From a virus: a stretch of 64,000 nt of DNA. The stretch is from positions 754-64,753 of the IMG/VR virus record IMGVR_UViG_3300031576_000038; one strand, given 5' to 3'. The notes under the pieces are model-generated. The model saw only the letters and a program-made list of their open reading frames with translations. It did not search any database and had not been told where the DNA came from. Of this stretch, positions 52,128-55,221 are shown piece after piece (the stretch's first letter is position 1; each line of letters begins with the position of its first letter). Made by a program: the position numbers and the translations under genes.

Positions 52128-52251
52128 TGGACTCGACGTGAGGAATCGAACCTCATCTTGCGAATAGCGTGCTACCGTTACACTAAGGTCGGGGAGTCGA
52201 ACCCCTCTTCACCCCTACTCGGGGGCCGTGCGACCAGTACACTACGTCGAG
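52128..52251 (-). ncRNA. expanded tRNA-like element (Y-RNA-like), CCA encoded
   Basis: Terminal 7-bp stem CTCGACG/CGTCGAG followed by T and CCA. 5' D-arm GTGT-ACTGGTC-GCAC. 3' T-arm TGAGG-TTCGATT-CCTCA. The 75-nt interior holds a second T-arm-like and a second D-arm-like copy. It sits just downstream of the rsr-like gene. Confidence 0.4.
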
Positions 52252-52264
52252 AGAGCCGAAGGCT

Positions 52265-53867
52265 CTAGTTGCGGACGAAGTCAGCCATGACCGCCGGCGC
52301 GGACGTGTCGAAGCCAACAATGTCGAGCATACCCGCATCGTCCGGGTCCGCGATGGTGAACTGGTTCGCGACCATGCCCACAACAATCAGCTTCGCCGGG
52401 ATGCCCATCTTCTGACGATACTCCTTCAGTGCCTGGACCGGGTGAATGCTGCCGGCCCAAGTTTCCGAATCGGTGTAGACGACGAAAGCGTCCGCCTCAA
52501 TCTTATTCTGAAGGGCGTAGACCATCGGCAGAGAACAGTTGGTGCCGCCCATCGGAATGCGACTCACTGCGTTGACCGCAGCGTCGAGACGCATACGCGG
52601 ACTGATGGGCACTTCAACCAGGTGATGGCTGAAGCCGAAGATGTGGTGCTGCGATTCGCTTGCGGCCGTGATGAGGGCCATCGCGGCGCTGCCGATGCGA
52701 GGCGTGATGCCGGCCATGCCAGAGATTTCCGGACCGCTCATGGAGCCGGACACGTCGAGCGCGAGCAGCCAACGCTTGTTGGTCGGCTCGATGGCCTTGA
52801 ACGCCAGATAGAATGCCGAGTCGAGCGCGTCGGTCACCTGTTGCACGCGGGTCCAGGACAGCTTGCCCTTCTCGCCGTGGCCCTGGTTGTAGGTGTTGAG
52901 GGCCACAAGAAGGTTCAGCGGGTGGATACGCGCCTTGTGAAGCTGCTGCGGGTCCGTCAGCCGTTGGACAGCGTAGTTCGCCGCCTTGGAGAGCGGAGCA
53001 ATCAGGCCGATAGACGACATCTTGCCGAGGTTGCGGATGAGCGCGGTCAACGGCATGTCTTCGAGGAGAGCTTCCCATACGTCCTTGTCGTTCAGGAACT
53101 GCGTCGGGATGCACTCGCGCACGAGACGGTAGTCGCGGATGAGGCGGATGATTTCCTTCGAGGATGTCGCTCGCTTCGCCCGCTCGAAGGCCCAGATGGG
53201 CAGAAGAGCTTCCTGGTCGTGCGGCTTGTCGCCGACGTTCTCCCAGCCCTTGGTGACATAGTGAGCGATGGTCTGGAGGTCGCCTTCAAAGCGCGGGTGA
53301 GCCAGGCGCAGCAAGTCTCGATGAGACCAGCCGTCGCGCTGCTGATACTTCGTGACCTGGTAGGCCACGTCGCGCGGGTTCTTCGTGCTGTACCACTCGC
53401 CGATGGCGCGGCGCAGACCGCGACCCCCAACCACGAAGCTCGTTGCACGCAGCAGCGAACTGGAACAGGTGCGTGCCGATGCGACACACTTCCTGGGCAC
53501 CGGTCAGTGCGGCCGACTTGGTTTCCTCGTTGCCAAAGGTTGCGGCCAGGGCCAGCGCGAAGATGGCCGGGTCGTTCTTCGGAGCGCGACCTTCGCGAGA
53601 GACGGCGATGATGCGACGAACTGTTTCGAGACCGTCTTCCTCAATGCACTTCAGGACGCCCTTGGCGTTCTCCTGGGTCAGCTTGCGCTCTTTGGCGTAA
53701 TAGCTGCCGCCTTCGGAGCCGAGGATGAGGAAGCGTTCGAGACGAGTGAAGTTATCGACCTTGAAGCTGTAGCCGCCAGCAGAGTTCTTCACCTGCTTGC
53801 TGCCCGGAATCTTCTCGGACTGCGGGGTTCGCTTTGTCGAAACGAGAGATGCGTAACGATTCGCCAT
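52265..53867 (-). pseudogene. rsr: Ro60/TROVE (Rsr) ribonucleoprotein homologue with C-terminal vWA; apparent frameshift at C5/G5 run near 53424-53428
   Basis: N-part frame (53286-53867) carries FTRLERFLILGSEGGSYYAKE, FALALAA and CRIGTHLF. C-part frame (52265-53500) carries GGRGLRRAIGEWY, KYQQRDGWSHRDLLRLAHP, MPLTALIRNLGKM and the MIDAS motif LALDVSGSMSG. The two frames join at a GGGGG run. AGGAGG RBS sits before 53867. Confidence 0.65.
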
Positions 53868-54148
53868 TGGACATCCTCCTAAAAAACAGTCGAACGAATG
53901 GTGTCAAAGACGCCCGGGTTGCATGTCCGGGACTTTGCCGGCAAGCCGGCTGGCGCGATAATCTTCAACTTTCGGCTCGACAGACAGGGTTCAGAAAACT
54001 TAGCAGGCAAGGATTCGACTGAGGGGGTTTCATCAAAAAGATAACCCTCAGTCAGCGGCCCGCGTTTTTGGAGCGAGTGGTAGTGGTGAGACTACAATAA
54101 CCTACTGGCATCGTCCCGACGAGCGGGATAGTGGTCGCCATAGGCAGC

Positions 54149-54261
54149 CACTCGCAAATGAACGGGGTGGGAGTCGAACCCACAAATCGCAGTAACGATA
54201 ACGGTCATCCAGCGGCCCCTTCTGAGACGAAAAACGGCAACCGGCTGCTCATGCCCATGAG
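54149..54261 (-). ncRNA. expanded tRNA-like element (113 nt)
   Basis: Ends GAACGGG/CCCGTTC pair perfectly. D-arm GCTC-ATGGGCAT-GAGC. T-arm GTGGG-TTCGACT-CCCAC. About 60-nt interior carries one repeat copy. Confidence 0.4.
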
Positions 54262-54427
54262 CGACCCGTTCGAGTACGCGCGAGCGATGGTTAGTCATTG
54301 GAGAAAATGGATGGAACAAGAACATCTTGTCCCGCCCGAGAACCAAAGCGCTGCGGCTCGCGTTGTATAGAGTGGGCAAAGGGATAGCCGAAGGCGGAAT
54401 CATTAAAAGTGATAACCTTCAGCAAAC

Positions 54428-54557
54428 GGCCCACAAGCAGACAGGGACGGATTCGCACCGCCAACCCCCAGCGCCGAGAGAACAGTTCGACATCGGCCCA
54501 CGTTGAAGCGGACTACAAAGCGTTGAACCATTACAAGCTGGTGCTCTACTGATTGAG
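54428..54557 (-). ncRNA. expanded tRNA-like element (130 nt)
   Basis: Ends AGACAGG/CCTGTCT. D-arm GCTC-AATCAGTA-GAGC. T-arm GGCGG-TGCGAAT-CCGTC. About 80-nt interior. Confidence 0.4.
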
Positions 54558-54805
54558 CTACCTGTCTAACGTTTGAATCATGAGCAAGTCTTTCGACGCT
54601 AGGTGGTACGTGCGTGTAAGCGGCCGTGTCACGCTTCTTTGGACTCACGCTACGTGTGTTGCATCGTTTGCACGATAATCCACGCCGTTCGGCTCATGCT
54701 TTATTGTGCGAGCAAAGCATTTGTGTTCCGTGCCTGTTTCGAGCAGGCGAAAGGGCTTTCAAGGCCCCAATCATCCACGATTATGAAACACATCCGGCTC
54801 GCAAG

Positions 54806-54950
54806 TGGCCAGGGTTGGACTCGAACCAACGCCTTTCGTTCTTCACACGATAACCGTTTCCAAGCCGGCCCATCTACGCCCTACTATGAGAGCGCATCGG
54901 ACAAAAAATAGGAACCGGGTTTTAACGCTCTACCGCTAAGCTACCTGGCC
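54806..54950 (-). ncRNA. expanded tRNA-like element (145 nt)
   Basis: Ends GGCCAGG/CCTGGCC. D-arm GCTT-AGCGGTA-GAGC. T-arm GTTGG-TTCGAGT-CCAAC. Interior holds CAT within an 8-nt loop and one repeat copy. Confidence 0.4.
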
Positions 54951-55087
54951 ATGTTCTGCGTCGGTCGTTGCAAGCGACCCATGTTTGCTTGATGTCCTCC
55001 AAGTTACAGCTTGAAGATAATCGGCTCTCGTGCGGCTCAGGCCGGGACCGTCCCGACTTGAACAAAGAATGCTGAGGACCGTGTCAG

Positions 55088-55221
55088 TGACCTCGGTGGG
55101 GCTCGAACCCACGACCTCTCTCTTAAAAGGAGATAACGCTTTATCACCGTCCCGACGCTTATGAGGCGTCAGTCAAAAACGACAAGCGGTTTTTAGCGCT
55201 CTACCACTGAGCTACGAGGTC
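55088..55221 (-). ncRNA. expanded tRNA-like element (134 nt) with CAT anticodon-like arm
   Basis: Ends GACCTCG/CGAGGTC. D-arm GCTC-AGTGGTA-GAGC. Extra hairpin AAAAAC...GTTTTT. Anticodon-like arm GACGC-CTCATAA-GCGTC. 41-nt variable region carries the repeat. T-arm GTGGG-TTCGAGC-CCCAC. Confidence 0.45.

Follow-up and report, generated by a model that had tools for sequence, protein, structure and literature searches.

A predicted Ro60 ribonucleoprotein module in a large phage, with candidate Y RNAs that include tRNA-shaped circular permutations of YrlA

Within the 64,000-nucleotide stretch of viral DNA analyzed here ("the window"), we identified a large-phage region that is likely a Ro60 ribonucleoprotein module, in which rsr, the Ro60 gene, stands beside a same-strand array of 14 Ro60-motif modules. 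Four of these are, by sequence, complete tRNA bodies with an extra arm, i.e., circularly permuted forms of YrlA; expression of the RNAs and their binding by Ro60 are predictions made from sequence. All 14 modules (13 strict and one variant) share the strand of rsr and lie in the 1.5 kb ahead of it. Four are tRNA-shaped units (tY1 to tY4), about seven are candidate stand-alone Y RNAs, one is a closed module that has neither D nor T arm, and one is a composite stretch. All units are on the minus strand, the upstream ones no farther than 1.4 kb from rsr and a tRNA-like shell on its other side 14 nt away. They are listed below with fold z-scores and, where applicable, bit scores for the Rfam tRNA model and for R1, a covariance model built from relatives (cut-off E ≤ 1e-12, i.e., at least ~56 bits).

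55307-55374, minus strand: candidate stand-alone Y RNA Y1, 5' UUCGGGCCGA pairing with 3' CCUUGCCUGAA; z -1.4
55224-55298, minus strand: candidate stand-alone Y RNA Y2; z -5.0, 0 of 200 shuffles as stable
55088-55221, minus strand: tY1, candidate tRNA-topology Y RNA; Rfam tRNA 48.4 bits with a 75-nt insert, R1 90.3 bits
54963-55081, minus strand: composite Y-like stretch, two to three degenerate Ro60-type motifs at 55054, 55038 and 55027 (motif scan); z -0.9, not significant
54806-54950, minus strand: tY2, candidate tRNA-topology Y RNA; Rfam tRNA 47.5 bits with an 87-nt insert, R1 83.9 bits
54707-54803, minus strand: candidate stand-alone Y RNA GCGAGCCGGA...UAAUC ... CUUUGCUCGC, terminally paired, with three interior hairpins; z -2.4
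54579-54698, minus strand: large candidate stand-alone Y RNA CAUGAGCCGAACGG...GAUUAUC ... CUUGCUCAUG, terminally paired, with exact GNCGAAN0-1G; z -0.7, not significant
54438-54567, minus strand: tY3, candidate variant tRNA-topology Y RNA; Rfam tRNA 51.6 bits with a 58-nt insert after loop position 37, R1 only 45.0 bits
54372-54435, minus strand: candidate stand-alone Y RNA, anticodon-like hairpin AUCA-CUUUUAA-UGAU right after UUAUC; z -3.8
54279-54363, minus strand: candidate stand-alone Y-like RNA CGCGAGCCGCAGC...GGUUCUC ... CGCUCGCG, with the motif and a 3' strand without the CUUG signature; z -2.8
54159-54271, minus strand: tY4, candidate tRNA-topology Y RNA, found by the detector; R1 68.0 bits
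54073-54155, minus strand: closed Ro60-type module without D or T arms, with the motif; z -1.7
54003-54064, minus strand: candidate stand-alone Y RNA GCGGGCCGCUGACUGAGGGUUAUC ... CCUUGCCUGC; z -5.1, 0 of 200 shuffles as stable
53889-53981, minus strand: candidate stand-alone Y RNA GUCGAGCCGAAAG...GAUUAUC ... CAUUCGUUCGAC, exact GNCGAAN0-1G and terminal pairing; z -2.0
52265-53867, minus strand: rsr (Ro60; TROVE and vWA domains), from translations
52128-52251, minus strand: downstream tRNA-like shell, found by the detector; R1 31 bits, from the tRNA shell only; z -0.75

The arrangement of the array was evident from a motif scan. The pattern G[GA]G[CA]CG-N(~12)-TT[AC]T[CT] matched 13 times on the minus strand between 53957 and 55371 and nowhere else on that strand, with three weak matches on the plus strand, and this clustering upstream of rsr is not due to chance. 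Eight copies of the motif were also recovered as one family by a blind repeat finder; array copies are highly diverged (~63% alike in the motif block) with their structure kept. UUAUC lies 17-18 nt from the motif start in every unit, with UUCUC in its place in tY3. Exact GNCGAAN0-1G occurs in three stand-alone units (GCCGAAUG, GCCGAACG, and GCCGAAAG), and the four tRNA-shaped units keep GNCG, followed by GU, GC, AU, or CU in place of AA. The first-pass annotation had described this 1.5 kb as ORF-free, which is accurate insofar as the longest mechanical ORFs (81-103 aa) overlap the RNA units and had no Pfam match. Neither a sigma-70 promoter nor a convincing terminator was found on the minus strand.

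An independent detector, which required a T arm, 7/7 acceptor pairing, and a D arm, recovered 55221-55088 (134 nt), 54950-54806 (145 nt), 54567-54438 (130 nt), 54271-54159 (113 nt), and 52251-52131 (121 nt), and ARAGORN in intron mode called the identical five intervals. This bears out the earlier report of five tRNA-like elements with a perfect 7-bp terminal stem and D and T arms, all on the minus strand; its "at least five", however, was an undercount, given about nine further Ro60-motif modules without a tRNA core in the same interval. The Rfam tRNA model matched tY1, tY2, and tY3 above its gathering score (E ~1e-7 to 1e-8), passing only with the inserts listed above treated as insertions. 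Default ARAGORN called none of the units correctly, mis-calling the 3' part of tY2 as tRNA-Phe at 54805-54880, and tY4 was called by neither Rfam tRNA nor default ARAGORN. Rfam 15, suggested earlier as a check, was otherwise silent on the tY units, and equally so on the Y RNAs of eight bacterial Ro60 loci, where it likewise matched only tRNA, so that the lack of a Y-RNA model match is uninformative. Unconstrained folding of each unit yielded a five-arm cloverleaf as the minimum free energy (MFE) structure for three of the four upstream units (z -2.5 for tY1, z -2.6 for tY4) and as the centroid structure for the fourth, 54950-54806.

The tY bodies correspond to a class-I tRNA with a 7-bp acceptor stem, free ends, U8, D arm, variable loop, T arm, and discriminator, to which all four upstream units add a closed copy of the Y-RNA Ro60-binding helix (GGGCCGA...UUAUC / CUUGCCC). 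In this extra arm, a lower helix GGGC/GCCC (bulged C, G.U and A-U pairs) leads through an internal loop into an upper helix that finishes with UUAUC. A loop or hairpin closes the arm at the position that the 5' and 3' termini occupy in an ordinary Y RNA. The structured interior had been proposed to exist instead of, or in addition to, an anticodon arm: it stands beside an anticodon-like arm in tY1, tY2, and tY4, between that arm and the D arm, and lies inside the anticodon loop in tY3. No tY unit has the 5-bp anticodon stem and 7-nt loop right after nucleotide 26 of a decoding tRNA; the anticodon-like hairpin of tY1, tY2, and tY4 follows the D arm at a distance of 60-75 nt, the loop has 6 nt in tY4, and tY3 lacks such a loop.

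Individual units vary on this plan. In tY1, the acceptor stem is GACCUCG/CGAGGUC, the spacer after the D arm CUAAAA, the variable loop ahead of the T arm AGGUC, and the discriminator A. Its closed Ro60-type arm GGGACGG...GCGUUAUC is tipped by hairpin GACGC-CUCAUAA-GCGUC, its anticodon-like arm is UCUC-CUUUUAA-GAGA, and its motif, GGGACGG, fits the canonical bulged helix poorly. tY2 has acceptor stem GGCCAGG/CCUGGCC, Ro60-type arm GGGCCGGCUUGGAAACGGUUAUC with an extension hairpin, and anticodon-like arm UCGU-GUGAAGA-ACGA. In tY3, the Ro60-type module (GUGGGCCGAUG..., closed by loop UUCAAC) is flanked by stem CCAGC/GCUGG, the D loop is AAUCAGUA, the T loop UGCGAAU, and the 15:48 pair A:U; in an ortholog at positions 1710-1864 of a related contig (L009), the D and T loops are unchanged and the stem covaries. 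tY4 consists of acceptor stem GAACGGG/CCCGUUC, U8-C9, D loop AUGGGCAU, and Ro60-type arm GGGGCCGCUGGAUGACCGUUAUC, its anticodon arm being replaced by a degenerate hairpin AUCG-UUACUG-CGAU.

Among the stand-alone units, Y2 has a canonical Ro60 helix GGGC-C-GA / CUUGCCC, bulged C included, together with an upper stem, UUAUC, and, at 55230-55224, a tail of seven U residues. Y1 starts a few bases past the stop codon of an upstream vWA gene. Against the Rfam nematode stem-bulge RNA family, Y2 scored 28.4 bits (E 0.0067) and Y1 21.4 bits, both below the gathering threshold of 38; we take the stem-bulge RNAs to be Y-RNA homologs, and human Y1 and Y4 have the same GGUUAUC spacing as the stand-alone units. 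In the interior of 54579-54698, a conserved element, GAGUCCAAAG, precedes a hairpin whose loop is UGACACGGC; two related loci (L001 and L008) share this motif, and its stem covaries. The closed module 54073-54155 is bounded by the outer stem GCGAGUGG/CCACUCGC of 8 bp and contains the closed arm UCCCG-CUCG-UCGGGACGAUGCCAGUAGGUUAUUG plus a small hairpin, and the unit at 53889-53981 ends ~20 nt ahead of the rsr start codon.

The element downstream of rsr differs from the rest of the set. It possesses D and T arms, a 7-bp acceptor stem, a U as discriminator, and, as had been noticed, an encoded CCA (CGTCGAG-T-CCA, ending at 52128). Within its 72-nt interior, hairpin GGGG-UUCGACU-CCCC resembles a further T arm and hairpin GUGU-AACGGUA-GCAC a further D arm. 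The CCA may be a chance occurrence, since it is missing from the only homolog of the shell (L009 523-642). The motif scan detected no Ro60 motif in 52128-52251; the initial Y-RNA interpretation thus suits the four upstream units, which carry the YrlA Ro60-recognition sequence on the rsr strand within 1.4 kb of the gene, and is doubtful for this one.

The tRNA-shaped form is not restricted to this phage. R1 scores of tY1, tY2, and tY4 compare with at most 49 bits for real tRNAs of the window, tY3 scoring no higher than ordinary tRNAs, and on the phage's real tRNAs the model deleted the Y arm and aligned the true anticodon arm to the hairpin after UUAUC. At E ≤ 1e-12, R1 had 44 matches in the window and in viral and metagenome loci together, and a further 91 in 80 bacterial loci, i.e., ~130 further copies beside Ro60 genes, with the record titles of the bacterial loci naming at least seven phyla and one match in the complete genome of Desulfonema magnum. 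All matches are on the Ro60 strand, one locus excepted. In an alignment of 46 relatives (A2), U8 and G18-G19 never vary and 45 of the 46 have A14 and A21, none of which the detector required; UUAUC is near-invariant, and the 15:48 tertiary pair is G:C in 23, A:U in 20, and other in 3. Overall, 86.5% of A2 cells were paired, with a covariation score of 0.53 compared to at most 0.17 when partners were slid; the acceptor, D, and T pairings were detector-required and their 100% pairing is not independent, whereas the Y-arm helices and the 15:48 pair are. The 91 bacterial matches were 90.1% paired, with covariation 0.50 versus at most 0.13 with partners slid and compensatory changes at Y-arm pairs (e.g., GC 25, CG 16, AU 12, and UA 6 at one pair); counts from a further alignment, A4, lean toward structure, as it was fitted to the model.

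These molecules might have two functions, the full-length five-arm RNA receiving CCA, being aminoacylated, and serving or disturbing translation in addition to binding Ro60. The free 7-bp acceptor stems with discriminators would suit such a role, as would the enrichment in the family of anticodon-like loops with a C-U-NNN-A-A signature and the CU that follows the discriminator in three of four units and in 8 of 11 ordinary tRNAs picked up by the same detector. M. smegmatis YrlA, moreover, gets CCA after RNase P cleavage (Chen 2014, PMC4201824). Yet the anticodon-like triplets vary freely, family members often have a degenerate anticodon-like arm, as tY4 does, or none at all, and an extra arm of 45-70 nt where the D and anticodon arms meet would probably get in the way of contacts with the ribosome or a synthetase. 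We therefore regard a dual function as unlikely and favor Y RNAs in a tRNA-like body.

The state of rsr itself bears on whether the module is functional. In this assembly, the gene lacks an intact reading frame: a G5 run near 53421-53429 holds one base too many, which breaks rsr into two overlapping ORFs, and the Ro60 partner may be inactive here because of this frameshift. Single-base homopolymer indels are a common assembly error. Once joined, the 533-aa protein matched Ro60 proteins over its full length, with 70% identity to one of them (P0001; Pfam TROVE + vWA_Ro60), and hit Ro60 structures 1yvp (E 6e-151) and 2nvo (E 1e-121) in the PDB; its closest relatives carry Pfam TROVE and vWA_Ro60, and the RNA-binding block and MIDAS motif are conserved (KYQQRDGWSHRDLLRL and DVSGSM). 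The frameshift, together with the degenerate modules (54963-55081, the tY4 anticodon arm, and the tY1 motif) and several weak fold z-scores, could suggest a decaying relic, i.e., tRNA/Y-RNA pseudogenes beside an inactivated rsr with no present function. We consider this quite unlikely: copies that are so diverged yet keep their structure argue for maintenance over recent duplication and decay, tY3 and the downstream unit still have orthologs in the related contig, whose Ro60 is 64% identical, and the rsr indel could be an assembly error.

The alternative raised at the outset, ordinary decoding tRNA genes with a removable intron or insert, e.g., tRNA-Lys(UUU) from tY1, tRNA-Phe(GAA) from tY2, and tRNA-Tyr(GUA) from tY3, would explain why ARAGORN intron mode calls all five units, the 4-bp anticodon-like stems with 7-nt loops of tY1 (CUUUUAA) and tY2 (GUGAAGA), the lack of Lys and Phe among the 16 tRNAs that ARAGORN found in the window, and the start of the tY3 insert after loop position 37, the classical intron site. 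The intron positions called are nevertheless inconsistent (31, 33, 35, 37, and 39), with implied anticodons that conflict with the hairpins, and in three units the insert falls between nucleotide 26 and the anticodon arm. To our knowledge, this junction is no known tRNA intron site. We rejected this very improbable alternative, since intron calls came from ARAGORN intron mode only, the inserts, at 58-87 nt, fall short of group I intron size and had no Rfam intron match at E ≤ 10, tY3 has an asymmetric internal loop and no bulge-helix-bulge (by eye on the fold only), 50 of 120 relatives had no detected 7-nt-loop hairpin after UUAUC, members of the family always accompany rsr, on its strand in all loci but one, and the insert is the family's most conserved part, with the Ro60 motif and covarying helices.

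For the preferred Ro60 ribonucleoprotein module, we infer a mode of action in which the array would be transcribed together with rsr or from just upstream, and the tY units freed as tRNAs are, by RNase P at the 5' end and by trimming and CCA addition at the 3' end. Cleavage by RNase P and addition of CCA have a precedent in M. smegmatis YrlA. Phage Ro60 would then bind the closed helix, leaving the L-shaped tRNA part as a possible effector module that tethers Ro60 to a tRNA-binding partner or nuclease, by analogy with the Deinococcus Y RNA that tethers Ro60 to PNPase. The stand-alone Y RNAs may present alternative effector loops to the same Ro60.

Among known RNAs, YrlA is the closest counterpart. 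The Chen 2014 definition of Y RNAs and YrlA places them no more than ~4 kb from a Ro60 (TROVE) gene and on its strand, which is where the array lies. Ro60 recognition in YrlA involves GNCG(AA) on the 5' strand, a bulged C, CUUGCC on the 3' strand, and YUAY (UUAUC) ~22 nt downstream (Chen 2014, PMC4201824). YrlA (Chen 2014, PMC4201824; Wang et al. 2018, bioRxiv 10.1101/312249) and tY share the GNCG of this 5'-strand motif, YUAY, the "V" hairpin, the T arm, a 7-bp acceptor-type stem, a UA dinucleotide, the D arm, a CUAAA-type spacer, 15:48 covariation, and the same place near rsr on the same strand. The order differs: YrlA runs 5'-Ro strand-V-T-closed acceptor-D-Ro strand-3' and ends in the Ro60 helix, whereas tY runs 5'-acceptor-D-Ro3' strand-loop-Ro5' strand-V-T-acceptor-3', its ends free as in a tRNA and its Ro60 helix closed. 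Because the sub-elements of canonical YrlA are all there, with the RNA ends in the acceptor stem and not in the Ro60 helix, the tY units are, as far as sequence anatomy tells, circular permutations of canonical YrlA and not YrlA itself. Given the permuted order, models seeking a T arm and then a D arm should miss them. A dedicated scan of the window found no element in canonical order, which is seen in Gordonia phage BearBQ and Streptomyces phage Limpid (Ro5'-UUAUC-V-T-closed acceptor-UA-D-CUAAA-Ro3'). Aligned to the rotated BearBQ element, tY1 scored 107 (84 of 121 positions shared), compared to 32.5 unrotated and 33.9 +/- 6.8 for shuffles.

Other relatives are more distant. Deinococcus radiodurans Yrn1 resembles tY in having a tRNA-like part in the natural D-then-T order (Chen 2014), but its Ro60 helix occupies the acceptor position and contains the RNA ends, with no full D arm or free acceptor stem. 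Nematode stem-bulge RNAs (Rfam RF01656 and related) share with the stand-alone units the terminal bulged helix GGNCCGA / UUGNCC and GGUUAUC at ~22 nt (Rfam alignment); unlike these and metazoan Y RNAs, the units described here are phage-encoded, in a dense 14-module array. In Thermus phage phiLo, experiments showed that Ro60 binds two phage-encoded Y-like RNAs and forms complexes with host PNPase (PMC12135203). That system likewise has a phage Ro60 with Y-like RNAs upstream, identified by a CGAA motif, but, compared here by description, Yrl1 and Yrl2 are simple stem-bulge-stem RNAs and no tRNA-topology units were reported (PMC12135203). With tRNA (Rfam RF00005, including class II and intron-bearing forms), tY has in common the acceptor stem, D and T arms, variable loop, U8, A14, G18-G19, and the 15:48 pair, but adds a fifth arm of 45-70 nt carrying a protein-binding motif, with the anticodon arm optional in the family and the genes linked to rsr. 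We did not find this tRNA-order, permuted form of YrlA described in the literature, yet it is common in uncultured phages and bacteria.

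The Ro60/Y-RNA module in the window is real and conserved; that its RNAs are transcribed, processed and bound by Ro60, and that they act through an effector, we infer. Conservation of Ro60 and Y RNAs extends from bacteria to humans. In phages, Ro60 genes are no rarity: the phage collection has 361 records of them. Here Ro60 is encoded at 53867-52265 (-) by rsr as two overlapping ORFs, the N-terminal frame stopping at ...LRGWG and the C-terminal frame resuming at RGLRRAIGEWY, with one surplus base in a G5 run near 53421-53429 (minus strand GGTTGGGGGTCGCGG) setting the two apart. 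Joined, they give a 533-aa protein that shares 70% identity along its whole length with a metagenomic Ro60 carrying TROVE and vWA_Ro60 domains, and that matches the solved structures 1yvp (E 6e-151) and 2nvo. Databases already list a truncated 349-aa product of the same sequence, from a 194,118-bp contig, and the frameshift may mark an error of assembly, a true pseudogene or a site of recoding. The features of the array and its surroundings are listed here.

Features of the Ro60/Y-RNA region and its setting (window coordinates; tY, tRNA-topology Y RNA)
55221-55088 (-): tY1, 134 nt, found by the detector
54950-54806 (-): tY2, 145 nt, found by the detector
54567-54438 (-): tY3, 130 nt, found by the detector
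54271-54159 (-): tY4, 113 nt, found by the detector
52251-52131 (-): downstream unit, then CCA, found by the detector
54155-54073 (-): closed Ro60-type arm in an 8-bp outer stem, without D or T arm, found by folding
55081-54963 (-): stretch with degenerate motifs and no clear architecture
54579-54698 (-): Y RNA containing a GAGYCCAAAG element, which also occurs in two other Ro60 loci (L001 11266-11399; L008 about 1210-1260)
38951-57613, all (-): 16 tRNA genes
43887-44245 (-): tmRNA, Rfam 67 bits
180-1841, 2645-3430, 3649-5652 (-): split DNA polymerase with intervening exonuclease
35189-36133 (-): RlaP 'RNA repair pathway' nucleotidyltransferase
40070-40696 (-): calcineurin-like phosphoesterase
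58923-59429 (-): peptide deformylase
51015-51440 (-): GroES-like protein

The array belongs to a large phage; other genes in the window specify a DNA polymerase, a primase, a DnaB-type helicase, a ribonucleotide reductase and a UvsX-like recombinase. The polymerase lies in two separate ORFs, one matching the N-terminal and the other the C-terminal half of a single phage polymerase family, with a DnaQ/RNase_T-type exonuclease ORF between them. Two separate vWA-domain proteins (55382-56434 (-) and 51480-52106 (-)) flank the Y-RNA array and rsr, Ro60 itself having a vWA domain, and a sigma-70-family factor (56416-56976) lies just upstream. Among ~30 of the larger window ORFs scanned against Pfam in search of such partners, none encoded RtcB, PNPase or a CCA-adding enzyme; in this respect only the RlaP nucleotidyltransferase came up, 17 kb from the array. 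A promoter and terminator scan of the minus strand gave nothing useful, and Megablast of the region against 50,697 phage records returned no match, so that there is no annotated close relative to lean on. Taken together, the 16 tRNAs, the tmRNA, the RNA-repair-type nucleotidyltransferase and the Y-RNA array suggest heavy investment in RNA-level host conflict.

The first-pass annotation had described at least five tRNA-like units around rsr, and five were recovered by an independent detector whose sole requirements were a T arm, a D arm and a perfect 7-bp acceptor pairing. The Rfam tRNA model placed three of them above threshold, only with 58-87 nt skipped; default ARAGORN called none correctly, and its intron mode picked up every one of the five, placing the 'introns' at positions 31, 33, 35, 37 and 39. 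In the folding proposed earlier as a check, a five-arm cloverleaf came out for tY1, tY3 and tY4 without constraints, and for tY2 in the centroid structure. The 15:48 pair is G15:C48 in tY1 and tY2 and A15:U48 in tY3. In tY3 the Ro60 module lies within the anticodon loop, with stem halves CCAGC and GCUGG on either side, and its ortholog in L009, a related contig, has the same unusual D loop AAUCAGUA, the T loop UGCGAAU and a covarying stem GCGG/CCGC. Among the Rfam models first suggested for these units, the tRNA model matched and the Y-RNA model did not, even at E<=10 (besides tRNA there were two weak stem-bulge RNA matches, and noise). This missing match carries no weight, because a scan of eight bacterial Ro60 loci likewise turned up no Y-RNA family; to Rfam 15, these RNAs are solely tRNAs with inserts.

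The upstream units had been read as candidate Y RNAs, a view supported by a recurrent block, G(G/A)GCCG followed ~12 nt on by (G)UUAUC, which in large part matches the bacterial YrlA (Y RNA-like A) signature. That signature is GNCGAAN0-1G, resembling the Ro60-contacted GGUCCGA, then a conserved YUAY opening the V region (Chen 2014, PMC4201824). Thirteen minus-strand copies of the block fall in 53957-55371, with none elsewhere on the window's minus strand and three weak look-alikes only on the plus strand; a variant with a UAAUC end at 54800 brings the total to 14, the largest set beside one Ro60 among the loci sampled (others <=11). A blind repeat search grouped eight copies into one family at ~63% identity.

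Seven units stand alone; each is shaped like a Y RNA and has a 3' strand that matches, and three of these fold far better than shuffles (z -5.1, -5.0 and -3.8). In the unit at 55298-55231, 5' GGGC-C-GA pairs with 3' CUUGCCC, leaving a bulged C; as judged from its sequence, this helix is a putative canonical Ro60 site. With sub-threshold scores of 28.4 and 21.4 bits, this unit and its neighbour align in Rfam to nematode stem-bulge RNAs, which are Y-RNA homologs. The hairpin after UUAUC in stand-alone units can resemble an anticodon arm, e.g. AUCA-CUUUUAA-UGAU. The unit at 55298-55231 closes with a U7 tract at 55224-55230 (-) that resembles an intrinsic terminator or 3' tail, yet only 2 nt separate this tract from the start of tY1. 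The GAGYCCAAAG element precedes a 5-bp stem with an invariant 9-nt loop, UGACACGGC, in three places: inside a Y RNA in the window, in a tRNA shell without the Ro60 motif in L001, and alone in L008. Its stem covaries (AAGCG/CGCUU, GAUCG/CGAUC, GAGCG/CGCUC), and it has no Rfam match. A duplex-energy test of each unit's own 3' strand versus those of other units did not discriminate (means -13.0 vs -11.1 kcal/mol), probably blunted by a shared GC-rich lower helix that pairs with any copy, and alignment-based covariation was used in its place.

Searches anchored on Ro60 gave 6 + 80 viral contigs, 80 loci from bacterial genomes and five contigs from metagenomes. Of 172 sources, 69 contain tRNA-topology units according to the detector, nearly always on the Ro60 strand. 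We aligned 46 regular members under a seven-helix structure; 86.5% of cells were paired, with a covariation score of 0.53 vs <=0.17 for slid partners, the acceptor, D and T pairings being imposed by the detector and hence not independent evidence. The three Ro60-arm helices, which were not imposed, are 71-89% paired with compensatory changes. Also conserved without being imposed are U8 and G18-G19 (invariant), A14 and A21 (45/46) and the 15:48 pair (G:C in 23, A:U in 20, other in 3), which supports an L-shaped tRNA fold. R1, a covariance model built from relatives, scored tY1 at 90.3, tY2 at 83.9, tY4 at 68.0 and tY3 at 45.0 bits, the phage's real tRNAs reaching <=49. When R1 aligned these real tRNAs, the Ro60 arm was deleted and the true anticodon arm fell on the hairpin after UUAUC; the Ro60 arm is thus an insertion between nucleotide 26 and the anticodon arm in a class-I tRNA.

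At a strong-match cut-off of E<=1e-12 (at least about 56 bits), R1 found 44 matches when the window is counted together with the viral and metagenome loci, and another 91 in the 80 loci from bacteria. The titles of the bacterial records mention Chloroflexota, Armatimonadota, Myxococcota, Planctomycetota, Verrucomicrobiota and Actinomycetota, along with the complete genome of Desulfonema magnum 4be13 (NZ_CP061800.1, 4,727,266-4,734,846; 98.7 and 75.5 bits). The 91 bacterial matches, in an alignment fitted to the model, have 90.1% of cells paired and a covariation of 0.50 vs <=0.13. A 9.3-kb contig binned as Enterobacteriaceae, probably phage-derived, holds a GOLLD RNA (L113 857-1302, Rfam 165.7 bits) beside Ro60 and several tRNAs. 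A 35-kb contig binned as Polyangiaceae has >25 tRNA genes and four tRNA-topology Y RNAs around Ro60 (L169 2000-7560), and this stretch has the look of a tRNA island from a phage or prophage, not of a piece of bacterial chromosome.

Other readings of the array fare less well. It is unlikely to be a decaying relic, because perfect stems are kept in highly diverged copies and orthologs are present in the related contig. About 60% of the family has a 7-nt-loop hairpin after UUAUC, enriched in C32, U33, A37 and A38 and with an 'anticodon' free to vary. We consider it improbable that the RNAs are also employed in translation. The first-pass annotation had offered intron- or insert-bearing tRNAs as its alternative, and the loops of tY1 (Lys-like) and tY2 (Phe-like) would suit it, Lys and Phe tRNAs being missing from the window's set; it nevertheless fails on insert position, size, class and conservation, and the anticodon arm is optional. 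Group I, group II and bulge-helix-bulge introns were rejected on the same grounds. Mis-parsed tandem canonical YrlAs were rejected since acceptor halves pair only across each unit, with no complementary flanks, and are also disfavoured by closing loops of often only 3-6 nt in relatives; a recent duplication or mobile repeat was rejected since copies share motif-level identity only (~63%).

We do not extend the Y-RNA reading to the downstream unit. At 52251-52128, a tRNA shell encloses a 72-nt interior with a second T-arm-like and a second D-arm-like hairpin; the Ro60 motif is absent, and R1 matches the shell only (31 bits). The CCA noted earlier is indeed encoded, but is absent from its one homolog, in L009, and from all window tRNA genes examined. 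We regard it as a tRNA-like RNA tied to the module by position only. Two more tRNA-like shells, uncalled by ARAGORN and Rfam, occur in the tRNA island: a 99-nt one (48040-48138 (-)), whose 47-nt non-canonical interior contains GAGCCG, and another at 44462-44534 (-). R1 again matches shells only, at 30 and 21.8 bits, respectively.

We know of no identified partner for the tRNA-like domain of bacterial YrlA. We found no description of a tRNA-ended Y-RNA topology in the searchable literature. A tentative proposal, to which we give somewhat less than even weight, is that tRNA-topology Y RNAs form a widespread undescribed class with real tRNA bodies, free CCA-competent acceptor ends and a Ro60 arm at the D/anticodon junction; they would be unpermuted relatives, perhaps ancestors, of YrlA, and in phages would aim Ro60 at tRNA-handling enzymes or tRNA-targeting defences. 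With native tRNA ends, such an RNA should be accepted by RNase P, by 3'-trimming and CCA-adding enzymes and perhaps by aminoacyl-tRNA synthetases, so that the effector question opens to standard tRNA biochemistry, and a large array of differing effector loops would be a toolkit for directing one phage Ro60. The class may also fill gaps reported for Ro60-bearing groups, e.g. delta-proteobacteria, in which few or no YrlA RNAs were found (Chen 2014, PMC4201824), given the strong R1 matches in Desulfonema, Myxococcota, Chloroflexota and Armatimonadota loci. Its genes are easily mis-annotated as tRNAs or intron-bearing tRNAs, or missed entirely.

Earlier examples of phage Y RNAs come from mycobacteriophages, CcrColossus, Bacillus phage G and Thermus phage phiLo (Chen 2014, PMC4201824; PMC12135203). 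In phage Bas63, a preprint reports, a defence system is countered by a protein structurally like Ro60; its authors speculate that genes annotated as tRNAs close by could encode Y RNAs. Canonical YrlA, which has been likened to a circularly permuted tRNA, has the order Ro strand, V, T, closed acceptor stem-loop, D, Ro strand. The tRNA-shaped units instead run D arm, CUAAA-type spacer, 3' strand of the Ro60 helix, closing loop or hairpin, GGGCCG strand, UUAUC, hairpin, 4-5-nt variable loop, T arm and acceptor 3' strand; as the canonical order is the permuted one, the window units are the unpermuted form. A rough scan found the canonical order in ~60 loci, some beside tRNA-topology units, and none in the window. 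Cultured actinophages have the canonical order with the same sub-elements as the window units: in Gordonia phage BearBQ these are GCGGGCCGGAGUUGAUCGGUUAUC, UCUC-CUGCUAA-GAGA, T arm, AUCGGAC-GCGA-GUCCGAU, UA, D arm and GCUAAA...AUGCCCGC. Rotated at the acceptor loop, this RNA aligns to tY1 with 84/121 matches and a score of 107, versus 32.5 unrotated and 33.9 +/- 6.8 for shuffles. This permutation relationship bears on the proposal that dimeric tRNA transcripts gave rise to YrlA; a tandem pair of identical tY copies, holding the YrlA order across its junction, would provide a concrete route. Going by their sequence, the tRNA-shaped window units may work like YrlA, but they depart from its defining order, and for that reason we set them apart as a variant.
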